From positions 70,694 to 134,693 of the forward strand of contig JBAZNY010000002.1 of the NCBI GenBank assembly GCA_041649025.1: 64,000 bases of DNA, read 5' to 3'. A program made the translations under genes and the position numbers. The stretch comes from Bdellovibrionales bacterium. GTDB taxonomy: Bacteria; Pseudomonadota; Alphaproteobacteria; UBA9219. Below are positions 9,279 through 29,732 of the stretch, in pieces. Position 1 is the stretch's first letter. Each line of letters begins with the position of its first letter. A model generated the notes under the pieces. It did not search any database and was not told the DNA's origin. It saw only the letters and a program-made list of their open reading frames with translations.

Positions 9279-9289
9279 GCCGCACACGT

Positions 9290-9514
9290 TTATTGATGAA
9301 GAAGCGCTTTTAACATTTCGGCATGTATGCCCCTGGGATAGAGCAAGGCATCCCTTACGCCTGCGCCCTTTCCTTGAGGGTTCGGTTTTAAGAGTTCTTC
9401 CTCAACATGTTCGGTTTGGTTTCCAAAATCAATCCAACCGGAAAACTTCGAATTTCTCGGGATTTCATGGGCGGCGCTTTTCCTCGCGCTTGCGTCGAAA
9501 TTTTTGTTCATCAT
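9290..9514 (-). CDS. hypothetical small protein
   Basis: ORF only, 74 aa. It is co-directional with the genes at 9568-10528 and has no recognisable motif. Confidence 0.25.
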   Translation of the reverse strand: MMNKNFDASARKSAAHEIPRNSKFSGWIDFGNQTEHVEEELLKPNPQGKGAGVRDALLYPRGIHAEMLKALLHQ

Positions 9515-9567
9515 ATTTCCCCTAAAAAATTTTTGCCCAGCGCCATCCCGTTTGAACGCTTAAAAAA

Positions 9568-9756
9568 TTATTTGTCAAAACACGTTCCCGCCAGCTGTGT
9601 TTTTTCGCGAGAATTTTCTTTCGGATGCGACGGCGCCTGTTTTACGTTTTTTTCGGCCTCAATCTGGGCTATCGTTTGTTCGACAATCCGCTTTATGTCG
9701 GTTCTTAGAATACCAAGACGGGAACGCTCCGGCGCATCTTTTATTGTCAACATCAT
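9568..9756 (-). CDS. hypothetical small protein
   Basis: ORF only, 62 aa. It starts 8 bp after the stop of the upstream NTF2-like gene. Confidence 0.25.
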   Translation of the reverse strand: MMLTIKDAPERSRLGILRTDIKRIVEQTIAQIEAEKNVKQAPSHPKENSREKTQLAGTCFDK

Positions 9757-9763
9757 ATCCCCC

Positions 9764-10528
9764 TTAAAACTTGACGCTCTTGCTCTCGTAATGGCGGCCT
9801 AAAAAGGCGGGAAGCTTGCCGCCCGACTGCGAGCCGGGGAAATTCGCCATCTGGTACGAAGCATCCGTGCGGGTGCGCGTACTCCACAAAGCGTCGGGGT
9901 TCTGATGATAGAATATATCCGACGCGCTTTCCGTGCGCGCGAAGTCGAGAATTTCCTTGCGGTGCATGATCTTCCACACGCCTGCAGAACCCGAAGGACG
10001 GCGCTCGAAACGATCGAGATCGCGCCCGCCGAGGAACACGTCTTCGCGGCCTATCGGCTTTTCGATGCGGATATGAAGATGGAAGTAGGATTCAACCAAC
10101 GCTGAATCGCCGTCAAGCTCGACGCGAACATTGCCGATCAGGTGATGCGAGGAACGAACGCCCTGATAAACACCCAGGATCCAATGCACAAAATCGCCGC
10201 CCATTCCCTGAAAAACGCCGGGCCCGAGATCAAGCGTCGCATCGTGATACAGAACCGAGCGCAAAAGATTTTCATCAAGGCGGTCTATGCCTCGCGCAAA
10301 CTTGGCAAGAACTTCGGCAATCTCGCTTTTGTCGATGGCGGCCTGTAGCCGGGGAGGCAAATGTTCGCCCCTGCCCGACAATTGCGCCGCCATGCTGGGA
10401 CGCGGAAACTTCAGAAGAGAAAGAGCAGACTTGCTTCTGGTGTGAATCGCTGGTTTTTTCAATTTAGCTGGCTTTTTCTGCGCTGCCTGTTTTTTTACAG
10501 CAGCGCCTTTGTGTTGAGCAGTCATCAA
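9764..10528 (-). CDS. NTF2/SnoaL-like fold protein with a basic N-terminal extension
   Basis: The core LLRSVLYHDATLDLGPG...SSHHLIGNVRVELDGDSALVESYFHLHI is typical of SnoaL_4/NTF2-like domains. The N-terminal roughly 60 aa is K/A-rich. Confidence 0.55.
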   Translation of the reverse strand: MMTAQHKGAAVKKQAAQKKPAKLKKPAIHTRSKSALSLLKFPRPSMAAQLSGRGEHLPPRLQAAIDKSEIAEVLAKFARGIDRLDENLLRSVLYHDATLDLGPGVFQGMGGDFVHWILGVYQGVRSSHHLIGNVRVELDGDSALVESYFHLHIRIEKPIGREDVFLGGRDLDRFERRPSGSAGVWKIMHRKEILDFARTESASDIFYHQNPDALWSTRTRTDASYQMANFPGSQSGGKLPAFLGRHYESKSVKF

Positions 10529-10961
10529 GCCTCTCTCCTGCTTTCGATTTTTCTTAAGGACAACATTACGCCTCTAGCGAGGTGCCTTGAGGCAATATTC
10601 GTCCGGCCACCGGAACGATTAGCACGTCTGTTGTCTTTTTGCACGAAAATACAGAGGGTTAGCAAAAATTCCTTTAAAGAACACAAAATTGCACCATTTT
10701 TTCAACGAATTATATGGTAAAATTGACGTTTACAAGTAAAAAATAGCAGATTTTTGACGTTTTATCAGGAGAAAGAGTCAATTTTTTACAAACACGGCTT
10801 TTGAACGTGTGTTTTTATGACCTTAATGACTATAAATGCCCTTCAAACAGATAAAATTTCCTTTGAACATCATGAAACGATCATTGAACACCCTTTTTTG
10901 GCCTTTTCGCGTTTAGTCTTTGCGATATCGGAACAAAGAAGCAACAGACATTTACGAGCGT

Positions 10962-11156
10962 CTATTGAACCCTGAAAAGCGCAAAAAAGAGAACATAAAG
11001 CCAGCTGAACCAGCCATGAATGATCATCCAAAGAATGGAGTTGTTGACGCTATAAGACAAAATCATCGCCGCAACAGCGCCATAGCCAATCCCGTACTTT
11101 ATAAAAGCAGGGCCAAACGAGCCGAACCTGTGTTCTACGATATAAGTCATTGTCAC
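10962..11156 (-). CDS. small hydrophobic membrane protein
   Basis: 64 aa with two predicted hydrophobic helices (GIGYGAVAAMILSY and WMIIHGWFSWLYVLFFALF). Confidence 0.4.
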   Translation of the reverse strand: MTMTYIVEHRFGSFGPAFIKYGIGYGAVAAMILSYSVNNSILWMIIHGWFSWLYVLFFALFRVQ

Positions 11157-15338: not shown

Positions 15339-15432
15339 GGAGACGTGGCCGAGTGGCTGAAGGCGGCGGTTTGCTAAACCGTTATACGTTTGAAAAGATG
15401 TATCGAGGGTTCGAATCCCTCCGTCTCCGCCA
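15339..15432 (+). tRNA. tRNA-Ser (anticodon GCU)
   Basis: Acceptor ggagacg/cgtctcc, anticodon loop ttGCTaa, a long variable arm, T-arm gaggg-ttcgaat-ccctc and an encoded CCA. Confidence 0.9.
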
Positions 15433-15478
15433 ATTACCTTTTGTCCGACCCGGACACATGGGTAACAGAACGTACCGG

Positions 15479-16028
15479 CTACATAGGTGACACCCGCGAG
15501 CCAAACGGGTTGTCCAGGGGTTGCAAGATCTTCTCCTCCAAGTCGATATAACCTGGATCATAATCCATAAAACTGACAAGCCAAGTGCCTTCTTCGACCT
15601 CTTTGAGGCCGACAGCTTGTCCTGCGAACACGGTCGATAAATTGATTTTTTTTGCGGTGTAAACAGATCCGACCACAATGGGTAACGTTCGCGCTCAGGT
15701 CGTGGAGAGGATACACAAGTTCTGGAAGACCAGTATACACGCGTGGGGAAGGTTTATAAATCTCGGCCGGATACTTCATGCCCAAGGCTTCATGCGGACG
15801 GTCGTTGTTGTATTCTTCGATGAAGTCATCGAACTTGGCTTGCTGTTGGAAGATATTCTCTCCGGGTGGACGCGTAGCTTCTTTCTTCAGCGTCAGATGC
15901 ATGCGTTCATGGCGACCATTCTGTTGAGGATGTGCGCAAATACTGCTCATCCCGCGCTCGTGAGCCAACACAAAGCAAATATTTTTGGGCCGATCTCGCA
16001 ATTTCAGTGTTTGCGGCAATAATCTCAT
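15479..16028 (-). pseudogene. IS481-like DDE transposase remnant (N-terminally truncated and frameshifted)
   Basis: Two overlapping frames carry HPQQNGRHERMH (P-Q-x-N-G-x-x-E-R motif), NNDRPHEALGMKYP and the C-terminal LAGQAVGLKEVEEGTWLVSF. There is no N-terminal HTH or catalytic DD region. Confidence 0.75.
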
Positions 16029-16494
16029 GCGCAGATGTTAGCAGACGAAGCGTTTTGCCTTTTGCGGGCTGCTGGACAAGCGCGCTCGGTTCGAGCTTAA
16101 AAAAAGCTGCAAGGGCAGCAAGCGTTCCTGCGCGGCAACTATAGTTTGGATTGCTTTCCAGATTGCGAATAGTTTTTAAAGAAATTCCGGTTAGATCAGA
16201 TAGCCTTTCCTGCGAAATACCGCTGAGTTTGCGGTATCGCTTTATTTCAATGAAGCTTGGTTTGATTTTTCCGTCGTCTTTAATGACAAGCTCAGGAGCT
16301 AATTGATCTTGAGTATCTTTTTCGCGCTTATGTTGACGCGCAATGTCCGTAAGCATTGAAAAAGATTCTTCTTCACCAAAATCGCCGTTTTTAAAAACCT
16401 CCTTCTGGTTTTCAACACTGGCCCCTTGGTCCAACGGCTCTCGAAGCAAACTCCGGTTCCCCTGTACCATGACTTGCCACACCGCCCCGCGCAC
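15907..16494 (-). CDS. XRE-family HTH protein, apparently 3'-disrupted by the IS remnant (start uncertain)
   Basis: HTH segment LSGISQERLSDLTGISLKTIRNLESN. The ORF runs out of frame into the transposase fragment. It is paralogous in type to 28694-29344 and 30192-30857. Confidence 0.4.
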   Translation of the reverse strand: MRGAVWQVMVQGNRSLLREPLDQGASVENQKEVFKNGDFGEEESFSMLTDIARQHKREKDTQDQLAPELVIKDDGKIKPSFIEIKRYRKLSGISQERLSDLTGISLKTIRNLESNPNYSCRAGTLAALAAFFKLEPSALVQQPAKGKTLRLLTSAHEIIAANTEIARSAQKYLLCVGSRARDEQYLRTSSTEWSP

Positions 16495-16771: not shown

Positions 16772-17245
16772 TTAATTCCACCCAATTTCACAGTATGGCT
16801 TCGGAGAAAGCGATCTGGCGATTCCTTCACGAACATAAGGAACCATGTTCTTGGGGAGCTTATTTACAGGGAAGAAGCGCAAGCCTCCGCATTTGTGAGG
16901 CTCCTTATTACAAATCTCGTTTTTCCATTTCTTGCAGACATAAAAGAGGTCGATTGACTCCCGATCAGGCGAAAAGCGATGAACAATACAAGAAAAGGCC
17001 ATGTCCTTCGGGCGAACAACAATGTCCGCTTCTTCAAAGGCTTCCCGAACCATCGCCGCCGTTGAGCTTTCTCCCCCATCAAGATGTCCCGCGATGACAC
17101 TATAGCTTCCGTCGCAGAAGCCTGTGTTCTGCCGAAGGAGAAGCAGAACCTCTTTTCCCTTAAGCAAAACCAAATGAACGGCAACAGGCATTTCAAAATG
17201 CTTAGACGGAGATTTCTTTTTGGCTTTGCCAACGATCTTACTCAT
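16772..17245 (-). CDS. Nudix hydrolase
   Basis: The Nudix box GHLDGGESSTAAMVREAFEEADI fits Gx5Ex7REuxEExxu. The start is taken at MSKIVGK, which makes an ATGA overlap with the upstream gene stop at 17242-17245. Confidence 0.8.
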   Translation of the reverse strand: MSKIVGKAKKKSPSKHFEMPVAVHLVLLKGKEVLLLLRQNTGFCDGSYSVIAGHLDGGESSTAAMVREAFEEADIVVRPKDMAFSCIVHRFSPDRESIDLFYVCKKWKNEICNKEPHKCGGLRFFPVNKLPKNMVPYVREGIARSLSPKPYCEIGWN

Positions 17246-18225
17246 GACTTCCCCCTGAACTTTTTCGCGAAGCTGTCCGTCGCTCTCACCGTCGCATCCA
17301 AAATGCCCGGATCGTTGTAAACGTGCGCAGCAACCTCCACCATGACCCATTGTGAAGAAGGCCAATTCTTGTGGAGTTCCCATGCCGTCGTCGCTGGGCA
17401 TACGGCATCGTAGCGTCCTTGAATAATTATGCCGGGAATGTTCTTCAGCTTTTTGGCCCCCTTAATAAGAGCACCTTCCTTCATAAATCCCGCGTTCAGG
17501 AAGTAATGGTTCTCAATAGCGGCGAAAGCTAACGCGAATTTATCTCTGGATTTATCGATAGTGTATTCCCCCTTCGGGATAAGGCACATCGCATCGCCTT
17601 CCCAGTCAGACCATGCCCGCGCAGCTTCAATTCTTGTTGCCCGCTTCTTTGAGGCCAATCTTTTCCGATAGGATTTCATAATGTCTTTTTGCTCGGCACG
17701 CGAAAGGATGCCGATAAAGCGATCCCAAGCTTCTGGAAACAGATAAGAAGCGCCCTCCTGATAAAACCACTTCAGCTCTTTCTTTCTGAGCATAAAGGTG
17801 CCTCTTAATATCAGACCGAGTACATTGCGCGGATACCGCTCAGCATAAGCCAAGGCAAGAGTGCTTCCCCATGAGCCTCCCAACATGATCCATCGATTAA
17901 TCCCCAAAAGATGGCGAAGCTTCTCAATATCGGCGACAAGATGCTGTGTTGTGTTTGCCTTCAAACATGTATGAGGGGTGCTGCGCCCACAGCCGCGTTG
18001 ATCAAATAGAATTATCCGATACTTCTTTGGATCAAATAAGCGCCGATGGTCTTTACCGCAGCCGCCGCCAGGCCCACCATGTATAAAGAGAGCTGGAATT
18101 CCGTTCGGATTGCCGCACGTCTCCCAATAAATCTTGTGTCCGTCCCCCACGGAAAGCATGCCGTGATCGTAGGGTTCGATGGAAGGAAAGAAGGAACGCA
18201 AAGATGGGGTTTTATGGGAATTCAT
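17242..18225 (-). CDS. prolyl-aminopeptidase-family (S33) alpha/beta hydrolase
   Basis: YWETCGNPNGIPALFIHGGPGGG, FDQRGCGRS and the nucleophile elbow GGSWGSTLALAYAERYP. The start is taken at MNSHKT, giving an ATGA overlap at 18222-18225. Confidence 0.8.
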   Translation of the reverse strand: MNSHKTPSLRSFFPSIEPYDHGMLSVGDGHKIYWETCGNPNGIPALFIHGGPGGGCGKDHRRLFDPKKYRIILFDQRGCGRSTPHTCLKANTTQHLVADIEKLRHLLGINRWIMLGGSWGSTLALAYAERYPRNVLGLILRGTFMLRKKELKWFYQEGASYLFPEAWDRFIGILSRAEQKDIMKSYRKRLASKKRATRIEAARAWSDWEGDAMCLIPKGEYTIDKSRDKFALAFAAIENHYFLNAGFMKEGALIKGAKKLKNIPGIIIQGRYDAVCPATTAWELHKNWPSSQWVMVEVAAHVYNDPGILDATVRATDSFAKKFRGKS

Positions 18226-18773
18226 GGCGATGGAGCATCCTTTTTTAAACCAATGTGAAAAGCGCGGGAGGGTTCTTTCATGAACTTTGAAACTTCTGGA
18301 TCGCTGTGACAACTATAACCGGCATCATATGTTTTTGCATGCCCCATGTTGCACCAGAAAGAAATCTGGCCTATCCGCATCATCGGATAAACCCTAAAGG
18401 GATGAGCTGACACGATTTCCAGCGTCCACTGGTGACAAGAGCCGGTGTGCCCAAGGTTTGCAGAAATCTGTAAAAACAAGCCGAGCCGCCCCAGAGAGCT
18501 GCGTCCGATTAAGGACATTGCGTATTCTTTGCTGCCCAGAGTCTCATGGGTATGTCCCAGATAGACCGTGTGAGGCTCTAGGACATAGCCCTCCTCAGGA
18601 ATTTTTATCTCTTTGAATCCATAAAGGCGTTCTTCGTCATATTCGGGAACAAGAAGCTTCGGCCCAAGCCTATAGTTATAGCTGTTGGGATTGATTTGAT
18701 CGTCGTTGAACGGAACAATCGTAATATCGCCCGCATCGACCATCTTCTTAATTTCTGTTCCCGTCAAAATCAT
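18222..18773 (-). CDS. dCTP deaminase/dUTPase-fold protein, divergent copy 1
   Basis: MILTGTEI, NPNSYNYRLG, GRSSLGRLGLFL and WTLEI. The Glu equivalent to E. coli Dcd E138 is retained, and DPGW is replaced by HTGS. Confidence 0.7.
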   Translation of the reverse strand: MILTGTEIKKMVDAGDITIVPFNDDQINPNSYNYRLGPKLLVPEYDEERLYGFKEIKIPEEGYVLEPHTVYLGHTHETLGSKEYAMSLIGRSSLGRLGLFLQISANLGHTGSCHQWTLEIVSAHPFRVYPMMRIGQISFWCNMGHAKTYDAGYSCHSDPEVSKFMKEPSRAFHIGLKKDAPSP

Positions 18774-18778
18774 ACTAG

Positions 18779-19870
18779 TTACGCAAAATCCACGGCAAGT
18801 TTTGTAAGTCTCTTATTAAGTATCGCCCTGTCAGGCCCCATTTTTTCTTTCAAATCTTGATAAGAGGAAACGTATGCCGCGATTAAGCCGCCAGCGCTTT
18901 TAGATGCCGTTCCGAAGCAGACCTTTTCCATCTGTTTTGATGCGCGCTCAAGATCGGCTGGCGTTGACATCGTGCGAGGCAATAGCTCGGCGATGCCCTG
19001 AAGATAACTGCGCAAAACCCGTCCGCGCCCGTCCGCAACGGGTTTTATTCCCGATCTCATAATGAAAGTGCTTGCAGCAACGGCATCCGCGATTTTCAAT
19101 TCGTCGTTGGTTTCAGTCGGCAGAAATTCTGCGATAGGAGCTGCATGAATGGGGGTCGGCAGCCCCGTCATTCTGCTGATTGCCGTCTCCACCCCGAAAG
19201 CCATTTCCACCCCAAGCTTTCGTTCACCAGCTTCGATGATGATAATATTTCCAATATCCCCGTACTCCTCGGAATATGGCCCTTTGATTGCAATGTTGCA
19301 GTTTCGCCCCGTTATGCCGTCAATGCCAAATTTATGCGTGTAGTAAACGGGTTCTTTCGTGTCGAACACCAAATACTGGTCGAGCCCAAGGTTTTTCCAG
19401 AAATCAACCAGATCAACGTCCGAGCTGGCGATATGAATCTTGATGGTGTTTGGGTTCAAACACAGCCGTTCCGTCAAAAACTGCCAGAAAAGTTTGGATA
19501 CTTTTTCGACATCATCATATTGCGACAGCGTCCCTGTGCTGAGAAACATGGATGACCAGTTGGGCACATAATTATTGTCTTGAATTCGCCTGGAGTTTTG
19601 CGTCCGCAAACAATCTTGAACCATAAACAGGCCGTTAGGAGGAATGCTCCCGCTAAGAAGAACCGGCTTCAAAGTGCTTATCGTTGAGCCGGTAAAAAGA
19701 ACAGAAGCATCATCCTTAGGAACTAATTTTCCGGCAGGAGCTTGTGAAAACCCATTCTCCAGAAAGAATGACTGAAAATGTGTCGAGAACTCGTTTCTCA
19801 ATCTGCGCAATATCGTTTTGTCGTCGTAATCCTCTATCGCGCGCGTTAGAAGGGAATTATAGTTTGTCAT
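18779..19870 (-). CDS. stand-alone AlaRS catalytic-core-like protein (class IIc aaRS paralogue)
   Basis: 363 aa, collinear by eye with the AlaRS N-terminal domain: FQSFFLENGF.. (vs [10 protein letters not shown]), LVPKDDASVLFTGSTI (vs [16 protein letters not shown]), QDCLRTQN (vs QKSVRAGG), and VEMAFGVETAISRMTG (vs [16 protein letters not shown] in the alaS of this window). No tRNA-recognition, editing or C-Ala domains. Confidence 0.6.
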   Translation of the reverse strand: MTNYNSLLTRAIEDYDDKTILRRLRNEFSTHFQSFFLENGFSQAPAGKLVPKDDASVLFTGSTISTLKPVLLSGSIPPNGLFMVQDCLRTQNSRRIQDNNYVPNWSSMFLSTGTLSQYDDVEKVSKLFWQFLTERLCLNPNTIKIHIASSDVDLVDFWKNLGLDQYLVFDTKEPVYYTHKFGIDGITGRNCNIAIKGPYSEEYGDIGNIIIIEAGERKLGVEMAFGVETAISRMTGLPTPIHAAPIAEFLPTETNDELKIADAVAASTFIMRSGIKPVADGRGRVLRSYLQGIAELLPRTMSTPADLERASKQMEKVCFGTASKSAGGLIAAYVSSYQDLKEKMGPDRAILNKRLTKLAVDFA

Positions 19871-19873
19871 AAT

Positions 19874-20419
19874 TTATGGCTCCGGCTTTTGTTGTGCACT
19901 CTTCTTAAAATCCCTAAATACTTCGGAAGACCTTGGCCCATTTGCCCCCTGATATTTGCCTTTGTAGAGAACGATCTCTCCCTTCGGAACCCAGAAGGAC
20001 ACTTGCCCGACGAGCATTCCTGGATAAAGCCGAATGGGCAGCGTTGCGTAGAGCTGAAACGACAGATTTCCGTGCATACCGAGATCGACGAGATCGGCTG
20101 TTACATGAACAAACAGCCCAAGCCGAGCGATGCTGGAACGCGCGTGAATAATTGGGACAAAGTAGTCGCTTCCAACTTTTTCCTGTGTATGTCCCACAAG
20201 AAAATCCCCCTTCTTCATCAAGATTCCCTTTTCATCTGCGATGATCTCTCGGAACTCCGGCGGATTTCGGGGATCGATAACTGGCGATGTGTACTGGATG
20301 AACTTATTGCCCAGCCGCAGATCATATGAATTTGTCGTCGCCCGTTCAGGATCGAAGGGGCAAATTTCAATCTTTCCCAAGTTCCACTGATTGATAATTT
20401 CTTTTCCGGTCAAAATCAT
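19874..20419 (-). CDS. dCTP deaminase-like protein, copy 2 (catalytic Glu replaced by Gln)
   Basis: MILTGKEI, TNSYDLRLGNKF, ARSSIARLGLFVHVTADLVDLG and RLYPGMLVGQVSF are close to canonical Dcd. The VLEF position reads SFQL. Confidence 0.7.
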   Translation of the reverse strand: MILTGKEIINQWNLGKIEICPFDPERATTNSYDLRLGNKFIQYTSPVIDPRNPPEFREIIADEKGILMKKGDFLVGHTQEKVGSDYFVPIIHARSSIARLGLFVHVTADLVDLGMHGNLSFQLYATLPIRLYPGMLVGQVSFWVPKGEIVLYKGKYQGANGPRSSEVFRDFKKSAQQKPEP

Positions 20420-20493: not shown

Positions 20494-21594
20494 TTATGGC
20501 GCAGGGCCTTCTTTTCTCTTCTTTTCCCATTGGAGCTTTTTCAGCCAAACGGGCTCATTCTGACGCGGCTTAAAGGAAACGCACAAAGGAACAAACTCAC
20601 CAAAATGATTCCCCTTGTTCTGATTGGTGCACGGAGTGTCCTTGGTCATGTCGTGGCCAAGAAGTTCATTCGTCGGCGTGTTGTTCCAATAGATTTTTTT
20701 GCTATCGTAAAAACCGATGCCGTAAGGAGTCCCAATCATGAGAGAGCAAAGACGGAGCATCCCATTCGGAAAAGCTAGAATACGATCGAACTGCTTGGCG
20801 GAGCAGTATCCATAATATTCCTTGTTTCTCTCAAATTCCTCCTTGACCGTAACGCACTGGGGCATCCGAACATCGATGCCCTTCTCTGTCTCTTTGTACT
20901 TTTGCACTTCTGCAAAGGCCTCCATGTATTCCTTGACGCTGGTATTGATATTATTTGACCAAACGTCGCGCGGAATTCCGCCCTTGAACAAATCATGCAT
21001 GTTGAGCGTCTTGACCCCAAGACCCTTCATAAATTCGATCATGTTGATAAGAGCGAGCTGTCCGTTTTCGGCTTGTGCAGTAAGCCCTTTGTGCACGCAG
21101 CTTGTTACGTGAACGTTGTAGCCCTTTTCGATGGCTTTCTTGATGTTTGAGGTACAGTTTTTGAAGCTACCTTTGCCACGGATGGCATCGTTCATTTCCT
21201 CCGTATAGCCGTCCAGGCTGAACGTAATTTCATCAAGCTCGCGGAAATAGGGATTGTCGAGCAAGGACGGATTGAACATCCCGTTCGTATCGATGCGAAC
21301 GTGCGAATACCCCATTTGCTTCGCTTCATGAATGAGTTCCGGCAGCTTCTTGTATAAAGTCGGCTCTCCTCCCATAAACGTCATCTTAATTGCGCCAAGT
21401 TCGCGCATATTTTTCATGAGATTTAACGCGTCGCCATATTCCATTTCCTTTTTCTGAAGCTGGAATGTGAGTTCAGGCTTGTACAAGCACTGCACGCACC
21501 TCAAATTGCAGGTGTCAGTGAGATACATAAAAACCTGTCCAATTTTATTGTTGAACGCCTGATAAAATTGTTCGTCAATTTCCATTTCGCTCAT
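20494..21594 (-). CDS. radical SAM enzyme with a Cys-rich C-terminal region
   Basis: CNLRCVQC (CX3CX2C) near the N-terminus, then MTFMGGEPTLY, VRIDTNGMF and ITFSLDG. There are additional C-terminal cysteines, possibly an auxiliary cluster domain. Confidence 0.75.
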   Translation of the reverse strand: MSEMEIDEQFYQAFNNKIGQVFMYLTDTCNLRCVQCLYKPELTFQLQKKEMEYGDALNLMKNMRELGAIKMTFMGGEPTLYKKLPELIHEAKQMGYSHVRIDTNGMFNPSLLDNPYFRELDEITFSLDGYTEEMNDAIRGKGSFKNCTSNIKKAIEKGYNVHVTSCVHKGLTAQAENGQLALINMIEFMKGLGVKTLNMHDLFKGGIPRDVWSNNINTSVKEYMEAFAEVQKYKETEKGIDVRMPQCVTVKEEFERNKEYYGYCSAKQFDRILAFPNGMLRLCSLMIGTPYGIGFYDSKKIYWNNTPTNELLGHDMTKDTPCTNQNKGNHFGEFVPLCVSFKPRQNEPVWLKKLQWEKKRKEGPAP

Positions 21595-21721: not shown

Positions 21722-23830
21722 TTAGTTTTTATCTAACGACGAAGTGTTAGATGACGAGTGCGATGCCGGCCTTGTCGGATCGCAGGAAGGCGCGCGTGCT
21801 TTGATTGCTTTCAGGTCGCCAACATCATCGAAGAAACGTTGAAGCCAAATAAGCATCCCTATTCTATTTTCTCTGATGCTTACGTTGTCATCGTTGATGC
21901 GAACGTTTTCAAAAAACTCCGTAACAGTTGTCTCGGTCTCGCTTAAGCGTTGTAGCTTTGCTCCGTAGTCCAGCACAGGAAATTGCAGCGTCATCTTCGC
22001 CAACATCCCGCACATGCGCACATCATAATCCGAAGCCAAGAGCTTGCTGCTTGTGGCATACTCTTTGGTAGCCCAGTCCTTCGGCAATATCTTGCGAACG
22101 CGCGTAGCTACCGCCAATAATTTTGCCCCTTCCGGAGTTTTCATAAACTCCCGAATGGCAGTGCCGCGCTCAAACAAACGGCTTACGTTGTTGGTCTTGT
22201 CGTTATTTAATACCGATGAAATCACATCTTCGGGCAACCCGCGTTCCAGGAACGTTGACCTGATCCGATCCCGCATAAAATCGTCAATCCCTTCAGGAAA
22301 CTTTGCACTGTAAAGTTCCGAAGAAAGAGCAATACCTTCGGAAAGATCATAATCAATATTGTTTTCCAAAAGAATTCTGACCATCCCCAATGCCGTCCGC
22401 CTTAATGAAAATGGGTCGCGGCTGGAGCTAGGTATTTCTCCGATGCTGAAAAAACCGGTCAATGTGTCGATCTTATCTGCCAGCGCTATGGTTGCCGCCG
22501 TCTTCTCTTTCGGGCAAGCATCGCTTGGGCCGAGAGGCGCATAATGGCTTCTTATTGCTTCGGCAACGATTGGGGTTTCCCCCTGCTGCAAAGCACATCT
22601 ATATCCGACAATCCCTTGCAATTCTGGAAATTCATAAACAAGCGATGTGGTGAGATCGGCTTTTGATAAATTGGCCGCATGCTGAACTAAAGAAACGTCA
22701 GCCCCTAGCTTCCGCGCAATTGCCTTTGACAAAGCGGCAACGCGCTGCGTTTTGTCATACATGCTGCCCAATTTGTTATGGAACTTGAGCGTTTGAAGAT
22801 TCTGGACTCTATCGATAAGCGGAACGCTGACATCCTTTGACCAGAAGAAAAGTGCGTCCGACAAACGCGCAGAAATTACTTTCTCATTGCCGACAACGAC
22901 CGTTTTTCCTCCATCCTCTGTTACAGTTCCTGCGGCAAATATAAAGTTGGAAGAAAGGCCTCCATTCTCCTTCTTTAACGAGAAATACTTTTGGTTTGCC
23001 TTCATTGAGGTTGTGATAACCTCCGGAGGAACGTTCAAGAATCTTTCTTCAAACTGCCCAAGCAAAACAATGGGCCATTCTGTCAATCCGGCAACTTCCT
23101 CCAGAAGATCATTATCTTCATTAAGATGCAGTCCCTGTGCTTCTGCTATCCTTTGCGCATCGTTATAAATAATCGATTTGCGTTCGTTTCTATCTATTAC
23201 AACATGTCTCAATGCCAATTCATTTTTGTATTGTGCAAAATCTGTAATACAAAACGACTCTGGATTTAAGAACCTGTGTCCCACAGATTGATTTGTGTAT
23301 TCGAGATTAGTGCCGTTTCCGAGGTCAAAAGCTCCTTCTACGGCCTTGCCGTCAAAAACAACCGAGATGCTTTTCAGAGGACGCGCCCAACGGAACGTAG
23401 TTGATCCCCAACGCATGGATTTCTTCCATGACATCTCCCTTATCGACTTATCGATAACGACTGCCAAAACCTGCTTTGTTTCTCGTTCCTGGACTACCTT
23501 GTTCAAAACATAACATTCCCCTTTTGAAGTGTTCTTTGTTGACAGGTTTGTCTTTTGAGACCCCGTTGCTTTCAAAAAAGCGGAGATAATTTTCTCATTG
23601 CTATTTGTTTTTGGCCCTAATCTTTCAATATTTCTCGCTGGCAAGACGGTTGGAATTCCTTCGATTGCCACAACAAGCCGCCGTGGAGTCGATCCCCGAT
23701 GTAACTCTCCCATGGGGACGCCCGCATCCGAAAGTTCTTTACACAAAATGCTGGCAAATTGTTCTTCCGCTGCTGCTTGCACGTTTGCAGGAAGTTCTTC
23801 CGATAAAAGCTCAACGAGTAATTCCGACAT
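21722..23830 (-). CDS. glyS: glycine--tRNA ligase beta subunit
   Basis: MSELLVELLSEELPAN at the N-terminus, about 700 aa, directly downstream of glyQ (18 bp gap). The start is taken at the internal Met of the ORF. Confidence 0.9.
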   Translation of the reverse strand: MSELLVELLSEELPANVQAAAEEQFASILCKELSDAGVPMGELHRGSTPRRLVVAIEGIPTVLPARNIERLGPKTNSNEKIISAFLKATGSQKTNLSTKNTSKGECYVLNKVVQERETKQVLAVVIDKSIREMSWKKSMRWGSTTFRWARPLKSISVVFDGKAVEGAFDLGNGTNLEYTNQSVGHRFLNPESFCITDFAQYKNELALRHVVIDRNERKSIIYNDAQRIAEAQGLHLNEDNDLLEEVAGLTEWPIVLLGQFEERFLNVPPEVITTSMKANQKYFSLKKENGGLSSNFIFAAGTVTEDGGKTVVVGNEKVISARLSDALFFWSKDVSVPLIDRVQNLQTLKFHNKLGSMYDKTQRVAALSKAIARKLGADVSLVQHAANLSKADLTTSLVYEFPELQGIVGYRCALQQGETPIVAEAIRSHYAPLGPSDACPKEKTAATIALADKIDTLTGFFSIGEIPSSSRDPFSLRRTALGMVRILLENNIDYDLSEGIALSSELYSAKFPEGIDDFMRDRIRSTFLERGLPEDVISSVLNNDKTNNVSRLFERGTAIREFMKTPEGAKLLAVATRVRKILPKDWATKEYATSSKLLASDYDVRMCGMLAKMTLQFPVLDYGAKLQRLSETETTVTEFFENVRINDDNVSIRENRIGMLIWLQRFFDDVGDLKAIKARAPSCDPTRPASHSSSNTSSLDKN

Positions 23831-23848
23831 AATTGTTCTCAACCAAAG

Positions 23849-24715
23849 TTATGGATTTGCTTTAAGAAGCGTCTCGCAACATGCCTTCGCCAAATTTCTC
23901 ACGCGCCCTATATATGCTTGTCTTTCCTGTGGACTGATGACGCCGCGCGCATCAAGCGAATTAAACGTGTTTGCGGCCAAAACACATTGCTCATAGGCCG
24001 GAATTGGAAGTCTCTTCTTTAACAATTCCTCACATGTTTCTTCAAAATCATTGAAGTGCAAGAACAGTTTTTGAGGATTTGAGTGTTCAAAATTATAGGC
24101 CGACATCTGTTTCTCGTTTTCGAGATAAACGTCGCCATATGTCAGGCCTGAATTGTTGTAAGGAAGATCGTAAACGTTGTTCACGTCTAGTACATACATA
24201 GCAAGACGCTCTAACCCATAGGTAAGTTCAAGCGTCACGGGGGAACACTCCAAACCGCCCATTTGCTGAAAATATGTGAACTGCGAGATTTCCATCCCGT
24301 CACACCAGACTTCCCAACCAAGGCCGCTGGCTCCTAAGGTTGGGCTTTCCCAGTCATCCTCAACAAATCGGATATCGTGCAACGCTGGCGTTATCCCGAT
24401 CTCCTTGATGCTGTCCAAATACAATTCCTGGGAATTAGCCGGAGATGGCTTTATCACGACCTGGAATTGATGGTGCATTTGCAGCCGGTTGGGATTCTCT
24501 CCGTATCTGCCGTCTGTCGGACGCCTTGCCTGCTGCACATACGCAGCTTTCCATGGCTTCCCTCCGAGCACCCTAAATACCGTTGCGGGATGATATGTGC
24601 CCGCGCCCATTTGCATATCGTAGGGCTGAAGAAGTGCGCACCCCTTCGATCCCCAGTATTTTTGCAAACCAAGAATAATGTCTTGGTAGCAGCGCAGCTT
24701 TTTGGAATCCTGCAT
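23849..24715 (-). CDS. glyQ: glycine--tRNA ligase alpha subunit
   Basis: [60 protein letters not shown], and [22 protein letters not shown]. Confidence 0.93.
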
Positions 24716-24807: not shown

Positions 24808-26835
24808 TCAAAGCGCGCTAGTTAATGACAGCAGAGGAAACACCGGTTTTTTCAAGCGAGCCCTTAGTTCATTGAAGTGTTTTCCAGCAAGATCAAACCC
24901 CCCTTTGCTCAGCATCGCGGAACTAATAAAATAGCCATCCCCTTTAACATTCTGCTCATCAACTGCTTTAGCGATGTCATCATGCGTAAGGAGACCAGCA
25001 ACACAGATATTTCCGCCAAAGTGTTGGTTAGACGCGGCAATTATGCGTAAATTACGAACTTTTTCATCAGGACGAAGCAGCTCCGTTGCTGCGTCTAAAA
25101 AAGGCTTCATGATAGAGCTTGTGACAAGAACGGGTTGTTGCAATTCATACTGCCGTTGGTGCGCAGCAATACGCCGGAAAATTGAGAAATCCACATCGTC
25201 ATTCATGAGGATTCCCCATGTTCCGACCTTCTTATCAACCAGCGTTCGCGCCCGCTTCAGTGACTTATAGGCAGAAAGCTCCACATCTCTTTGCATTCCC
25301 CTCGGGTCTCGCACAGCGACGACCATCTTGTTGGCTTGAAGATCATTTAATAGCTGAAGTGCTTCGGTTCGTGACCGTGGAGTTTTCCCATTAACTTCGA
25401 TGATTGTTGATCCCGCTTCGATGCCAGCTTGATCGGCGTTTGATCCTTCAATGACATCTTCTATCGTTGGCGTAAGCCCAGTTCGATTTAGCAATCCTAC
25501 CGTTACAATTATGGCTGTTTTGACAGATGGGCGTAGAGCGGTGACAAATGAATCAATCCGTGCCAATTCTTCTGGTGACAAAAGCAGTTTTGGATTGTGA
25601 TGAAGCGTGCCCGCCGGAAGAGCAACTCGTATATATGACGTCGGCTCATACTTGTCCGCATAACGAATTGTATGCTCGATGTCCTCTAATGGTATCCAAC
25701 TCGTGGCTGCAACAAGAGAAACATCAAACTGAATTCCCAAATCGTGCATTAGCGGTAATGATTGAATAGCAACTTCATGTTGTTCAGGTCTGCCCCCAGG
25801 CATAAGTATTTTTCTGTAGGCAGGGTCCGCGCTGTTCAGCGAGACTTGGAACAGGACTTGCTGGCGAAGCTGATCGTCTTCTGCAATTGCCTTAAGAAGC
25901 TTCTGTTTTAGGTTTCCGCCATGTGTCAGGATGGGGACTTGCGCCTTAGGATCAGCGGCGCATATAAGCTTCAGAACCTTTAGAAATTCAGGATGTTCCG
26001 TTGGCTCCCAATCCATCAGCGCATAACGTAACGGCGGATGCCCAAAACGAGTATTTGCGTCGTAGGAATTTAGAGCGTCCTTAATGTCATCAAGCGATCT
26101 CGCCCATCCGCGCGGGTATCTGACCGTCGAAAAACCTCGATCAACATAACAGAACCGGCATCCCTGATTGCAGTTATTCCATACGAAAGGAATTGCTGCA
26201 TTTTGAGCCGACCCAATAGGAACTTGAAGGGCTTGGGCATCAACGACTTTTGCCACACCTGGTTCAGAAAAATCAAATGTATTCAAAAGCCACTTCCGTA
26301 CCACAGCCTCAAGCGTATCGTTATTATGAACACTCGGTAATGGAATTGCCGGAGAAGGAAATGTTGCCCCGCCAAGAATATGTTGTACCGCCGCTACGCG
26401 CCCATTTAGCACACCCCCTTCATTGAGAAGTTCCACATCGTGCAATAGGGCAAAAGAAATATCTCCCCAATTGATTTGGGCTTTACCTGGATTAGATGCA
26501 GCTCCTGCTTCGAAAGAGCCTTTTCCTAAACGCATATAGGCATCGCATAACAATACTATGGGAGATTCAAACCCAAAAAGTTGACCCTGAACGCTTTGCA
26601 TTTCTTGTTGAGGGATAGGTTTGCTGAGATCGTTAGTACTATTTGAAACTCGAATACGATCAGGAACTAGGATATTGCCGTGAGCATCAAAAAACTGCGA
26701 AAACAGTATGACTGCTTGTGCCAAACCAAGAAAACGAGATTCTTTCGACCCAGCATCGTCAAGAAGACCATATTTCTGAATTTCGATAGCCTTTATCGTT
26801 GAAGAAAATTGTTTTGGCAGCGCGTTATTTACCAT
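24808..26835 (-). CDS. radical SAM / PDZ / DUF512-like multidomain protein with an unassigned roughly 230 aa N-terminal domain
   Basis: CNQGCRFC (CX3CX2C) at about residue 232. A PDZ-like segment IEDVIEGSNADQAGIEAGSTIIEVNGK. The C-terminal FGGNICVAGLLTHDDI resembles DUF512. Confidence 0.6.
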   Translation of the reverse strand: MVNNALPKQFSSTIKAIEIQKYGLLDDAGSKESRFLGLAQAVILFSQFFDAHGNILVPDRIRVSNSTNDLSKPIPQQEMQSVQGQLFGFESPIVLLCDAYMRLGKGSFEAGAASNPGKAQINWGDISFALLHDVELLNEGGVLNGRVAAVQHILGGATFPSPAIPLPSVHNNDTLEAVVRKWLLNTFDFSEPGVAKVVDAQALQVPIGSAQNAAIPFVWNNCNQGCRFCYVDRGFSTVRYPRGWARSLDDIKDALNSYDANTRFGHPPLRYALMDWEPTEHPEFLKVLKLICAADPKAQVPILTHGGNLKQKLLKAIAEDDQLRQQVLFQVSLNSADPAYRKILMPGGRPEQHEVAIQSLPLMHDLGIQFDVSLVAATSWIPLEDIEHTIRYADKYEPTSYIRVALPAGTLHHNPKLLLSPEELARIDSFVTALRPSVKTAIIVTVGLLNRTGLTPTIEDVIEGSNADQAGIEAGSTIIEVNGKTPRSRTEALQLLNDLQANKMVVAVRDPRGMQRDVELSAYKSLKRARTLVDKKVGTWGILMNDDVDFSIFRRIAAHQRQYELQQPVLVTSSIMKPFLDAATELLRPDEKVRNLRIIAASNQHFGGNICVAGLLTHDDIAKAVDEQNVKGDGYFISSAMLSKGGFDLAGKHFNELRARLKKPVFPLLSLTSAL

Positions 26836-26901: not shown

Positions 26902-27339
26902 TTATAACCCCCTTTGGGGGGTATAAGTTTCAACAAAACAGCGCGTCCCCTCTATTGCATAAGGGGAGATCAAGCCAAGCGTACATGCAATCGAAACGGC
27001 GTTTGCCTTGTTAACCGCGTTAAGCTTGTTCGATATTTTCCGGTGATAATCTTTGACTGTCTCTTCAGATAGACAAACAATGTCCGATATTTCTTTCCGT
27101 GTTTTTCCCCTTGCCGTCCAAGTCAGGATTTCTGCTTCTCTCGCTGTTAGAGGTTCGATGAGGAAGGACTCTGATGAATTCGGTGTGGCATTAGGATAAG
27201 CCAAATATAGCGTGGCCAGATGGGTGCGAACACGAACGCTGGAGCCGTTTTTGCGCAGCGCTGTATGACCAGAGCGGATTTCCTCTACTGGAAACCTTCC
27301 CCCGGACACGTTGCTCAAATTTTCAAAAAGCTCGTCCAT
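26902..27339 (-). CDS. LuxR/FixJ-type HTH transcriptional regulator
   Basis: The C-terminal LTAREAEILTWTARGKTRKEISDIVCLSEETVKDYHRKISNKLNAVNKANAV is a GerE/LuxR HTH. The N-terminal roughly 70 aa is unassigned. Confidence 0.8.
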   Translation of the reverse strand: MDELFENLSNVSGGRFPVEEIRSGHTALRKNGSSVRVRTHLATLYLAYPNATPNSSESFLIEPLTAREAEILTWTARGKTRKEISDIVCLSEETVKDYHRKISNKLNAVNKANAVSIACTLGLISPYAIEGTRCFVETYTPQRGL

Positions 27340-27416
27340 TTATCTTCTTTTGCAAATAGATTAATTTAGTATTCCCGTTGTTAGACAGGTGAATTAATAA
27401 GTTATTGCGTTCTTTC

Positions 27417-27755
27417 CTAAGCAAACAACGCCTTTATCTGTTGGTTTTCCATATTCAGTGTATGTATTTTCAGTGCTTTGGAAGGAGTCATTGTTTTCCG
27501 ATATCTTCCATCATTATTTTTCATTAACCGCTGCTCGACATCAGCCATCGCGTTCGCCATGTGCCACAGCTCGTCGATTTCTTCTTTTGAAAAACCGAGG
27601 AGCAGTAAATCCTGCGGCAAACAGCCCCCATTCTTATGCGTCAGGTCGATAATGACGGTCGCCATGCGTTGATACGGAGCAAATTTGCTATCAAACTCGG
27701 TACTGATATGATCGATTGCTTGCGGAATGAGGCTTGTTTGTAATGCGGATTTCAT
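27417..27755 (-). CDS. hypothetical protein (third gene of a 3-gene overlapping set)
   Basis: 112 aa ORF. Its start overlaps the upstream stop by 4 bp (27752-27755). No recognised motif. Confidence 0.45.
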   Translation of the reverse strand: MKSALQTSLIPQAIDHISTEFDSKFAPYQRMATVIIDLTHKNGGCLPQDLLLLGFSKEEIDELWHMANAMADVEQRLMKNNDGRYRKTMTPSKALKIHTLNMENQQIKALFA

Positions 27756-28189
27756 TGGGGAGTCTCCGCATTCGTGTCTTCGATTTCTTCATCGAGATAT
27801 TTCAGCACCAGATCAGCAACTTTTCCTTGCTTTGCCGTAGCGTAGAGTTGCCACTGCATCCGGCGCGATTTTCGCGTTTGGAGCCGATCATAAAGTTGGA
27901 TGAGGGATTCCTTGTCTTGGGGAATTTGTGTCGAGCCTTTCGTTTTACGTTCTTCAATATATGTCGCAATTGCGTCGTCGATTTTCGCGGCGTCCTCGTC
28001 ATCAACAAAATTGATGGTTCCTGAAGGAAATGCTTGGAAAATATTGAGATTACAGAACTCATCCATGCGCTTGGCAAATTTCACAACCCTTTTTGCCATA
28101 TCCGGTGTTTTGCCTGCCTTCCCGTCGGCAATAACGGTTTGAAAAGCCAGCATAAGGCAAAGGCGCTGATAGAGGATATTCGACGTCAT
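27752..28189 (-). CDS. hypothetical protein (second gene of a 3-gene overlapping set)
   Basis: 145 aa ORF with 4 bp overlaps at both ends. No recognised motif. Confidence 0.45.
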   Translation of the reverse strand: MTSNILYQRLCLMLAFQTVIADGKAGKTPDMAKRVVKFAKRMDEFCNLNIFQAFPSGTINFVDDEDAAKIDDAIATYIEERKTKGSTQIPQDKESLIQLYDRLQTRKSRRMQWQLYATAKQGKVADLVLKYLDEEIEDTNAETPQ

Positions 28190-28473
28190 TTGGATTTCTC
28201 CTCGTTCGCCTTTGCTTCCTTGAATTTGGCAAGAAGGCGCGAAAATGAGCCAATCGCCGGACGGTCGGTCGGCGGCTCAATGAAATTCGCGGAACTCAGT
28301 ATGCTAAGGCCCGTGTGCGAGAAAGCCTGAAGAAACGCTTCACGGGCTGCTGAAGAGTCGAAAGTTCCCTGAAGAATGACGCTGTAGCGCAACTGAGGGT
28401 TTAACGAAGGAGCGACACGCGATGCTGCATCTTCTTTATGTAACGAGAAGGCTACTGTGTTGTCCCTCATCAT
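28186..28473 (-). CDS. hypothetical protein (first gene of a 3-gene overlapping set)
   Basis: 95 aa ORF with a 4 bp overlap to the downstream gene. No recognised motif. Confidence 0.4.
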   Translation of the reverse strand: MMRDNTVAFSLHKEDAASRVAPSLNPQLRYSVILQGTFDSSAAREAFLQAFSHTGLSILSSANFIEPPTDRPAIGSFSRLLAKFKEAKANEEKSK

Positions 28474-28693
28474 ATAAACCCTGAAATAGCGTTTAATTAA
28501 TGAGGCTAGTGTCTGCCGCCCAAGATAGAAGTTCCACGTTCCATCTCGTTGTTTTTCGTCAATTTCGGCTGGAAGAATTGACGAAAAACACTGTTTGTAT
28601 TTATTCGTCGTTTGTGAGGACTGTTCTTGTGAAGAAAAGAATGAAAACGCGGCAAGTAGATTTGCCGCGTTGGGATGCTTTATCAGAATATGG

Positions 28694-29344: not shown

Positions 29345-29373
29345 ATTATAAATCCTTCAAAAAAATTCAAAAA

Positions 29374-29727: not shown

Positions 29728-29732
29728 GATGA

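Follow-up and report, generated by a model that had tools for sequence, protein, structure and literature searches.

Proteins of the dCTP deaminase (Dcd) family form homotrimers (or hexamers) with active sites at the subunit interfaces, and the catalytic glutamate, Glu138 in Escherichia coli Dcd, is reportedly essential for deamination. The stretch analysed here (64,000 nt, referred to as the window) belongs to a metagenome-assembled genome (MAG) of a Bdellovibrionales bacterium (GCA_041649025.1, contig JBAZNY010000002.1, positions 70,694–134,693 of the forward strand) and encodes two divergent Dcd-fold paralogues. They were distinguished as copy 1 and copy 2 in an earlier note made from the same DNA and are called DCD-E and DCD-Q in the following. 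DCD-Q carries glutamine at the catalytic position, DCD-E keeps the glutamate, and both belong to subfamilies that are inherited as a pair. The duo probably helps to build an aminoacyl-pyrimidine-nucleotide antibiotic.

For the genes around the pair, the closest described systems are the microcin C and ascamycin pathways. Microcin C is encoded by mccABCDEF; MccD and MccE reportedly aminopropylate the phosphoramidate, and MccF is said to hydrolyse the aminoacyl-nucleotide for immunity. In the ascamycin pathway, a 370-amino-acid (aa) truncated protein resembling alanyl-tRNA synthetase (AlaRS), AcmF, comprises only the aminoacylation and tRNA-recognition domains, moves Ala from Ala-tRNA onto the nitrogen of a nucleoside sulfamate and is reported to lack most ATP-binding residues (PMC12945691, PMC4257720). 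The neighbours of acmF encode the alpha/beta-hydrolase AcmE, which removes the Ala again and is described as resembling a Xanthomonas aminopeptidase that dealanylates ascamycin, and the resistant AlaRS AcmD (PMC12945691, PMC4257720).

In a full-text search of one literature library, no publication was found that links Dcd-fold proteins to aminoacyl-tRNA synthetases (aaRS), microcin-C-like clusters or nucleoside antibiotic clusters, and AcmF was the only precedent that surfaced. The Dcd superfamily and the logics of microcin C and ascamycin are already known. The paired subfamilies with fixed Glu-to-Gln and Asp-to-His substitutions, and their role in clusters free of MccB, appear to be undescribed.

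Catalytic residues of the two paralogues

Genes of the window were assigned by Pfam and NCBIfam profile searches. The two paralogues are:

19874–20419, minus strand: DCD-Q (copy 2), 181 aa; PF22769 with E 2e-33; TIGR02274 with 108.1 bits (cut-off 92.8)
18222–18773, minus strand: DCD-E (copy 1), 183 aa; PF22769 with E 4.5e-32; TIGR02274 with 64.7 bits, under the cut-off of 92.8

Residue numbers follow E. coli Dcd. Copy 2 had been described as a near-canonical Dcd with Gln at the Glu138 column, and copy 1 as retaining this Glu in the motif WTLEI. Alignment with characterised Dcd sequences and bifunctional dCTP deaminase/dUTPases (DCD-DUT) bears out both statements. In HMMER alignments to solved structures (4XJC, 2QXX, 1XS1), the Gln of copy 2, and not a Glu, falls exactly on the catalytic column ('gnlsfQlya' aligned with 'GQITLELFN' of 4XJC and 'GHITLELSN' of 2QXX), and 'hqwtlEivsa' of copy 1 aligns with the same catalytic Glu of the solved Dcd and DCD-DUT chains. 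MAFFT alignments including E. coli Dcd gave the same columns for both residues. The Gln codon of DCD-Q is CAG (20056–20054), and the Glu138 codon of DCD-E (18419–18417) lies inside LGHTGSCHQWTLEI.

DCD-Q retains the equivalents of Arg110, Ser111, Arg115, His121, Thr123, Ala124 and Asp128 as well as the GKYQ lid. With all nucleotide- and triphosphate-binding residues kept and the deaminase Glu gone, 'nucleotide-binding, non-deaminating', as proposed in the earlier note, is a fair description of what its sequence predicts. For copy 1, the divergence seen as HTGSCHQ in place of DPGWSG was confirmed and can be specified. Asp128 is replaced by a His (18449–18447) that is invariant in the family, and Lys178 and Gln182 of the C-terminal lid are also lost. 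DCD-E further carries His133 (18434–18432) and Trp135 (18428–18426). In Dcd, Asp128 of the 'IDPG(W/F)' hairpin is the equivalent of the catalytic Asp of dUTPase motif 3, the base for attack on the alpha-phosphate (Asp90 in E. coli Dut, D83 in Mycobacterium tuberculosis (Mtb) Dut; PMC5519681). The trio His128, His133 and Glu138 of DCD-E is a possible metal site.

The AlphaFold model of DCD-Q (predicted local distance difference test, pLDDT, 91) superimposes on 4XJC with a template modelling (TM) score of 0.89–0.93 and a root mean square deviation of 1.4 Å. For DCD-E (pLDDT 85), TM scores of 0.79–0.85 were obtained and the C-terminus is poorly defined (pLDDT 52–68). Both models are closest to bifunctional DCD-DUTs (matches 4XJC and 4A6A, TM 0.79–0.93) and, together with the PF22769 matches, they assign both copies to the Dcd/dUTPase beta-barrel fold.

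Conservation was determined for 80 distinct DCD-Q and 74 distinct DCD-E sequences, taken from 86 further loci (metagenome scan and contig look-ups) in addition to earlier loci; open reading frames (ORFs) in the fetched loci were called by a crude longest-ORF procedure. The values are as follows:

Ser111: 100% in DCD-Q, 100% in DCD-E
Ser112: Gly 76% and Ser 23% in DCD-Q, 100% in DCD-E
Arg115: 100% in DCD-Q, 100% in DCD-E
Position 121: His 100% in DCD-Q, Gln 98% in DCD-E
Thr123: 100% in DCD-Q, Ser 94% in DCD-E
Ala124: 100% in DCD-Q, 100% in DCD-E
Position 128: Asp 100% in DCD-Q, His 100% in DCD-E
Position 133: Gly 96% in DCD-Q, His 100% in DCD-E
Position 135: not conserved in DCD-Q, Trp 100% in DCD-E
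Position 138: Gln 100% in DCD-Q, Glu 100% in DCD-E
Tyr171: 100% in DCD-Q, 95% in DCD-E
Lys178: 96% in DCD-Q, not conserved in DCD-E
Tyr179: 100% in DCD-Q, 95% in DCD-E
Gln180: 96% in DCD-Q
Gln182 (E. coli): Ser 96% in DCD-Q, not conserved in DCD-E

Both signatures recur in database searches. Copy 2 has 1131 matches at E<1e-10, with Gln at the Glu138 column in 118 of the best 120, and copy 1 has 3438 matches at the same threshold, with the signature Gln121/Ser123/His128/His133/Trp135/Glu138 in 116 of the best 120. Judged by this conservation, the Glu138Gln and Asp128His substitutions are neither chance nor decay. The table also shows that the loss is reciprocal: DCD-Q is without the deamination base and keeps the Asp and the lid, whereas DCD-E keeps the Glu and is without the Asp and the lid. 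The loss of the dUTPase-type Asp and the lid from copy 1 goes beyond what the earlier note had described.

Compared to Dcd and DCD-DUT, both paralogues share the fold, the phosphate-binding RSS motif (R/K-S-S) and Arg115, and DCD-Q in addition HVTA, Asp128 and the GKYQG lid. They differ in that neither has the full catalytic set and that DCD-E has acquired the new invariant residues His133 and Trp135. Both also have Ser three residues beyond the Asp, at a position that is aromatic in Dcd (E. coli has W131 there, and other species have F). In dUTPases, the Tyr equivalent to W131 keeps ribose out; the Ser in both families suggests that ribonucleotides may be accepted. Mean pairwise distances are 0.33 for DCD-Q and 0.37 for DCD-E, so that DCD-Q is the more conserved partner.

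According to the titles of PDB entries, the catalytic Glu has been the target of mechanistic mutants of the E. coli enzyme (E138A, 1XS4; E138D, 2V9X) and of the M. jannaschii enzyme (E145A, 2HXD; E145Q, 3GF0). DCD-Q corresponds, as a natural protein, to the laboratory variants E145Q/E138Q, whose purpose was to stop deamination and keep nucleotide binding; the title of 3GF0 states that E145Q was crystallised with pyrophosphate. In contrast to these engineered variants, the substitution in DCD-Q was fixed by selection across hundreds of sequences and always stands beside a Glu-bearing paralogue.

A set of proteins of about 820 aa (P0181, P0183, P0185, P0194, P0199 and P0230) contains an N-terminal Dcd domain that also has Gln at the catalytic position ('WTLQL'), and by eye the large C-terminal region fused to it resembles phosphoenolpyruvate-utilising/PPDK-type enzymes. 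The occurrence of Gln in this family as well indicates that the Glu-to-Gln exchange arose more than once in the Dcd fold.

Pairing, co-divergence and distribution

The gene between the two paralogues in the window encodes a truncated AlaRS-like protein, a marker so rare that 5.8 billion proteins contained only 43 clusters of it. In 45 genome loci and in the neighbourhoods of diverse family members, wherever Dcd-fold genes lie beside it there were always two, one DCD-Q and one DCD-E, across five phyla or classes. This two-type pairing was seen in Alphaproteobacteria MAGs, Serratia plymuthica, S. nevei, Ewingella americana and Erwinia typographi, and also in Paenibacillus, [Clostridium] polysaccharolyticum and Actinoallomurus.

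Among the 86 further loci, DCD-E directly adjoins DCD-Q in 76, with the order E then Q in 73, and the stop of E overlaps the start of Q by 4 nt (ATGA) in 28. An AlaRS-like gene between the two, as in the window, was found in only two of the 86. DCD-E was not found in eight: DCD-Q lies at a contig edge in four of them, three (L058, L059 and L070) have a 259-aa DCD-Q with DCD-E undetected, and in L133 there is no DCD-E within about 1.7 kb upstream of DCD-Q, a region taken up mostly by a 536-aa ORF on the opposite strand. The suggestion that the two copies and the AlaRS-like gene form a functional unit is upheld: the unit is conserved, and the two copies are co-inherited, mostly adjacent, translationally coupled and co-diverging. 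The position of the AlaRS-like gene between the copies is a minority order.

Across 58 distinct pairs, the distance matrices of DCD-Q and DCD-E are strongly correlated (r=0.92, Mantel p=0.001), and the identity of DCD-E to DCD-Q within a pair is only 36–48%. Both values together point to an old duplication with both copies under selection. An exhaustive HMMER search also detected single chains with three Dcd domains (P0165, P0178 and P0233). In P0233 the third domain bears the DCD-E signature 'LGHTGVRHRWTLEI' and the first two are nearer to DCD-Q, which indicates that covalent pseudo-heterotrimers of the Dcd fold occur in nature. A hetero-oligomer, or tightly coupled steps, would be the economical reading of the pairing and the fusions.

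Strict pairing would also be expected if DCD-Q were a dead pseudo-enzyme, a scaffold or regulator (a sensor of dTTP/dCTP, for instance) whose only task is to modulate DCD-E, with DCD-E as the sole active deaminase supplying a uracil nucleotide. This agrees with the requirement for Glu138 in deamination (mutant PDB entries and established knowledge) and with the resemblance of DCD-Q, in all other respects, to a canonical nucleotide-binding subunit. However, the binding residues of DCD-Q, Asp128 and Tyr171, Lys178 and Tyr179 of the lid are conserved at 96–100%, which would be needless for a pure scaffold, and DCD-Q is the more conserved of the two proteins. DCD-E, in turn, is itself without Asp128 and the triphosphate lid and is hence no plain dCTP deaminase. 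We consider a dead scaffold unlikely.

Dcd is a single housekeeping gene, whereas DCD-Q and DCD-E are an obligate pair in accessory clusters. The distribution of the pair is patchy, from Patescibacteria to Streptomyces plasmids, and restricted to accessory, horizontally mobile clusters. It is common in Patescibacteria and was also found in Serratia, Ewingella, Erwinia, Pectobacterium, Pseudomonas viridiflava, Burkholderia lata, Rhizobium plasmids, Paenibacillus and Streptomyces plasmids. Enterobacterales carriers such as Serratia and Ewingella presumably also hold the canonical housekeeping dcd, which would make the DCD pair an extra set. A phage module was considered and rejected: when IMG/VR was scanned with the DCD-Q profile, the only matches were four ordinary Dcd-like ones with 32–34% identity.

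Databases and PGAP-type annotation name both proteins 'dCTP deaminase'. DCD-Q passes the TIGR02274 equivalog cut-off without the catalytic Glu, so that automated pipelines label the whole family accordingly. Taken at face value, these names, the PF22769 matches of both proteins and the TIGR02274 score of DCD-Q would describe two ordinary, independent dCTP deaminases or DCD-DUTs for dTTP synthesis. Such a role is extremely unlikely, given Gln at the catalytic Glu in every DCD-Q, His at the catalytic or 3'-OH-binding Asp in every DCD-E, the score of DCD-E below the cut-off, the limitation of the genes to mobile and patchily distributed accessory clusters and the housekeeping dcd presumably already present in the Serratia and Ewingella carriers.

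Gene neighbourhoods and the microcin C and ascamycin comparison

Beyond what the earlier note had described, the pair turned out to be a large family, almost always in the order E then Q, with a microcin-C-like context and with a protein resembling lysyl-tRNA synthetase (LysRS) as alternative partner. The commonest gene order is S66 peptidase, pyridoxal phosphate (PLP)-dependent decarboxylase of the ornithine/diaminopimelate type, S-adenosylmethionine (SAM)-dependent methyltransferase (MTase)-like protein, DCD-E, DCD-Q and then the LysRS-like or one to two AlaRS-like proteins. The LysRS-like class II neighbour has 482 aa and scores under the LysRS cut-off. Neighbours were counted in 69 distinct loci, many of them on truncated contigs:

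MccD-like: 36 of 69 loci
MccF-like: 26 of 69 loci
MccE-like: 14 of 69 loci
AlaRS-like: 29 of 69 loci, and 6 more with weak matches
LysRS-like: 11 of 69 loci
MccB-like: 0 of 69 loci

The best plasmid matches of the MTase-like neighbour are MccD proteins of E. coli mcc-operon plasmids (28% identity over 264 aa, E 2e-33). The matched plasmids hold the ThiF-family MccB, the MFS transporter MccC, the MTase MccD, MccE and the S66 peptidase MccF. The S66 neighbour and MccF share 34% identity (E 3e-49), and the PLP decarboxylase and the N-terminal domain of MccE fall into one Pfam family (PF02784). Homologues of MccD and MccF and an MccE-N-type decarboxylase flank the DCD pair in most loci, and by analogy the logic of an aminoacyl-nucleotide warhead with self-immunity would be shared with microcin C. 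The difference is that MccB, a ThiF-type adenylyltransferase, is missing here and that the DCD pair and an aaRS-like enzyme are found instead. BLAST gave no MccB match in the 86 DCD loci, and none is encoded at 12–36 kb of the window; the MccA precursor peptide was not systematically searched for.

The versions from Enterobacterales and Paenibacillus contain the MTase, DCD-Q, DCD-E, the AlaRS-like protein, a metallophosphoesterase, two ATP-grasp proteins of the L-amino-acid-ligase type and an MFS exporter. By analogy, this layout is classic for a peptide-extended, exported Trojan-horse compound.

Several neighbourhoods depart from these patterns. AlaRS-like clusters without Dcd genes (L012–L050, mostly Patescibacteria) show two layouts, one with an HD protein, a SAM MTase, the AlaRS-like protein, S66 and a truncated class II aaRS (D/K/N-type), the other with a radical SAM (rSAM) enzyme, an AAA_18 kinase, a HIT protein, the AlaRS-like protein and S66. 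They may be sister pathways with another nucleotide source. The Rhizobium sullae plasmid pWSM1592_3 (L142, about 5200–11000) carries, in this order, a metallophosphoesterase, DCD-E, DCD-Q, an MTase, a fusion of an AAA-kinase with a zinc dCMP/cytidine deaminase domain and a NUDIX protein; the gene table of PLSDB omits its DCD-E. A 371-aa protein encoded in L053 (9809–10924), and also in L051, L063, L075 and others, matches NCBIfam NF051887, 'PheS-related mystery ligase SrmL', with 396 bits. Genes of this type are conserved in Patescibacteria, on the strand opposite to the DCD/LysRS-like clusters that they adjoin, and are accompanied by a gene of about 90 aa.

The family profile of the AlaRS-like proteins (360–430 aa) aligns with AlaRS residues ~4–140, which include motifs 1 and 2 with an invariant motif-2 Arg, and with residues ~254–359, the tRNA-recognition helices. 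The central catalytic region is too diverged for alignment with AlaRS. The window shares with ascamycin a truncated AlaRS-like protein of about 365 aa, an adjoining alpha/beta-hydrolase aminopeptidase and a nearby aaRS gene (AcmD there, glyQS here). The aminopeptidase is a prolyl aminopeptidase (Pip) whose close homologues include Serratia PAP (1QTR, 398 bits) and Xanthomonas PIP (1AZW, 382 bits); the latter is presumably the enzyme that dealanylates ascamycin. The AlaRS-like protein, the Pip-type hydrolase and the adjacent glyQS of the window can thus be placed in parallel to acmF, acmE and acmD. In contrast, the acceptor in the ascamycin pathway is a purine nucleoside sulfamate derived from sulfur-metabolism genes, and no Dcd-fold proteins take part. 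The AlaRS-like protein of the window also differs from AcmF in keeping the motif-2 Arg, and its likeness to AcmF was judged by size and domain description.

Genes for glycyl-tRNA synthetase (GlyRS) recur beside AlaRS-like and DCD clusters (loci L032, L043, L045, L014 and L082), and three loci have two paralogous GlyRS copies with 63–67% identity. This hints that GlyRS may be what some of the clusters inhibit; with regard to the window it is no more than a lead. The glyQS of the window, which shows 64 kb of the genome only, may be a cluster-associated copy for self-resistance.

The partnership with amino-acid-activating LysRS-like or AlaRS-like enzymes and the tRNA-recognition helices of the latter could also be read as a module that makes a modified pyrimidine for nucleic acid, such as a lysidine-like, amino-acid-bearing DNA or tRNA base, with the aaRS-like enzyme joining the amino acid to the base. 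The Glu138-type site performs C4 addition-elimination on cytosine, and an amine could conceivably replace water there. However, polymerase, glycosylase, transglycosylase or tRNA-modification genes do not recur in the neighbourhoods, and the MccF-like peptidase, the MFS exporter and the ATP-grasp ligases indicate a free small molecule. Base modification is therefore considered very unlikely.

In the window itself, the pair is part of a row of minus-strand genes in the order rSAM, DCD-Q, AlaRS-like, DCD-E, Pip and NUDIX. The further genes of the row and its surroundings are:

20494–21594, minus strand: radical SAM enzyme, 366 aa; only the rSAM core resembles MoaA, viperin or SPASM-type models, all below cut-off
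18779–19870, minus strand: truncated AlaRS-like protein, 363 aa; aminoacylation core and tRNA-recognition helices, no editing or C-Ala domains
17242–18225, minus strand: prolyl aminopeptidase (Pip), ~327 aa from the ATG at 18225; TIGR01249 with 397 bits
16772–17245, minus strand: NUDIX hydrolase, ~157 aa if begun at the ATG at 17245; L001 has this gene order too
21722–23842, minus strand: glyS, part of the low-GC stretch, immediately upstream of the cluster
23849–24715, minus strand: glyQ, next to glyS on its upstream side and likewise part of the low-GC stretch
15339–15432, plus strand: tRNA-Ser(GCT), start of the low-GC stretch
15558–16028, minus strand: rve_3 integrase-core fragment, start of the low-GC stretch

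The junctions between DCD-Q and the AlaRS-like gene (3 nt) and between the latter and DCD-E (5 nt) are very short, and ATGA overlaps join the DCD-E stop to the Pip start (18225–18222) and the Pip stop to the NUDIX start (17245–17242), which argues for a translationally coupled operon of six genes containing both Dcd genes. This architecture, with rSAM, Pip and NUDIX in place of MccD, MccE and MccF, is a minority type, also found in two Proteobacteria MAGs; the rSAM gene is kept upstream of DCD-Q in the window-type clusters L001 and L006. An identity of the rSAM protein as viperin or MoaA was rejected (scores of 80 against a cut-off of 284, and 57 against 180), and its PADLOC matches to pVip span the generic core only.

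The GC content is 0.45–0.47 across 16–32 kb of the window, compared to 0.51–0.55 in the flanks, a fall from about 0.53 to about 0.46. XRE-type regulators and a GNAT gene lie in this low-GC stretch, which has the look of a genomic island, and tRNA-Ser(GCT) and the rve_3 fragment likely mark its boundary; in this side region (15339–16494), an XRE helix-turn-helix (HTH) gene follows the integrase fragment. The XRE HTH proteins of the island (216–227 aa) are of a type similar to those adjoining the L001 cluster. The remainder of the island (26902–31531) includes a LuxR/GerE regulator (26902–27339) and a GNAT acetyltransferase (30854–31531); the C-terminal domain of MccE is also a GNAT, acting as an immunity enzyme. 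A 675-aa protein with radical-SAM, PDZ and DUF512 regions, a distant relative of TIGR03279, is encoded upstream of glyQ (24808–26835).

The location of the window copy on a tRNA-flanked low-GC island, and of relatives in regions of mobile or prophage-like character that include XRE regulators, Vsr, Dcm and a HATPase protein, would also suit an anti-phage or abortive-infection defence that depletes or alters the (d)CTP pool, for example through a chain-terminating aminoacylated or rSAM-modified nucleotide. The rSAM core is like those of viperin and MoaA, which use nucleoside triphosphates, and the R. sullae cluster has a kinase-dCMP-deaminase fusion and a NUDIX gene. Nevertheless, the rSAM matches are confined to the generic core and fall far under the cut-offs, PADLOC models match neither the DCD proteins nor the AlaRS-like protein, and the family is nearly absent from viral contigs. 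Homologues of MccD, MccE and MccF dominate, and ATP-grasp ligases and MFS exporters occur, all hallmarks of secreted Trojan-horse compounds with immunity. A defence function is thus distinctly unlikely.

Proposed function and its implications

The existence of the module and the co-function of DCD-Q and DCD-E are well supported, and a natural-product role of the clusters is probable from gene context. The reading we favour, with moderate confidence, is that DCD-Q and DCD-E are a two-protein module that processes pyrimidine nucleotides in an MccB-independent, microcin-C-like aminoacyl-nucleotide pathway.

The pair would have arisen by an old duplication of a bifunctional enzyme of the dCTP-deaminase/dUTPase type, followed by reciprocal specialisation; we infer the division of labour from residue conservation only. 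DCD-Q keeps the whole pyrimidine-triphosphate site (RSS motif, Arg115, HVTA, Asp128 and GKYQ lid) with the deamination base fixed as Gln. With an intact site and Gln138, it should bind, but not deaminate, a nucleoside triphosphate that has cytosine or uracil as its base, and it may still be able to perform or support alpha-phosphate chemistry, such as the dUTPase-like release of pyrophosphate. The retained Glu138, the invariant His128, His133 and Trp135 and the loss of the lid Lys and Gln suggest that DCD-E is a re-tooled base-side catalyst or partner. Most likely, the two would assemble into a hetero-oligomer built like the Dcd trimer; at the least, their steps would be tightly coupled.

The aminoacyl group would be given by the aaRS-like enzyme, the AcmF-sized truncated AlaRS-like protein in the window and a LysRS-like protein elsewhere, so that the DCD pair and this aminoacyl donor would replace MccA and MccB. 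Homologues of MccD and MccE would provide an aminopropyl-type decoration in most clusters. The MccF-like S66 peptidases would serve self-immunity or processing, a role that would fall to Pip and NUDIX in the window. The expected product is an aminoacyl-pyrimidine-nucleotide that would mimic an aminoacyl-adenylate and poison an aaRS in the Trojan-horse manner. Residue patterns, pairing, coupling, co-divergence, neighbourhoods and folds are observations, and heteromer, substrate, product and biological role are deduced from them. A presentation of dCTP or dUTP to the ligase, as suggested in the earlier note, likewise stands as a proposal.

Several observations weigh against this proposal. Adjacency and co-divergence are expected for any two genes of one operon. 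The PLP decarboxylase of L053 gave no BLAST match to MccE, and MccE-like proteins occur in only 14 of the 69 loci; the MccE link is drawn from the shared Pfam family PF02784 and these 14 other loci. MccD, MccE and MccF homologues are missing from the window cluster, which has rSAM, Pip and NUDIX instead, and the transfer of function to the window hence rests on the shared core of DCD-Q, DCD-E and the AlaRS-like protein. The related loci L001 and L003 have a mobile or prophage-like setting beside Vsr, Dcm and ATPase genes, as is typical of defence islands too. The AlaRS-like protein, with its motif-2 Arg retained, may either use aminoacyl-tRNA or activate the amino acid itself. The evidence on the oligomeric state of the putative E/Q complex is indirect and consists of the pairing statistics and the three-domain fusions. 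Finally, the nucleotide may be ribo or deoxy, C or U, and the product is hypothetical.

One specific chemistry for the module can be outlined, which we regard as quite improbable as a whole. The E/Q complex would couple cytosine deamination to attack of a nitrogen on the alpha-phosphate, yielding a nucleoside phosphoramidate that is acylated by the AcmF-like enzyme. DCD-E would free ammonia from a cytosine nucleotide, and DCD-Q would steer this ammonia or another nitrogen nucleophile, in place of water, to the alpha-phosphate of a pyrimidine nucleoside triphosphate. N-acylation by the AlaRS-like or LysRS-like enzyme would then lead to an N-acyl-phosphoramidate warhead of the microcin C type without MccB or a ribosomal peptide.

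Judged by their residues, thousands of proteins named 'dCTP deaminase' belong to two co-evolving subfamilies that should be unable to act as ordinary deaminases and would thus be misannotated. Their reciprocal loss is a clean natural case of sub- and neo-functionalisation of a bifunctional enzyme, and the pairs probably form hetero-oligomers although the fold is regarded as homotrimeric. The neighbourhoods suggest that MccB-independent aminoacyl-nucleotide clusters of the aaRS-inhibitor type make up a large class that is still unexplored. Since carriers in Serratia, Ewingella, Erwinia, Pectobacterium, Pseudomonas, Rhizobium, Paenibacillus and Streptomyces are cultivable, the hypothesis is directly testable. 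If true, it could yield novel antibiotic chemistry and add a type of reaction to those of the dUTPase fold.

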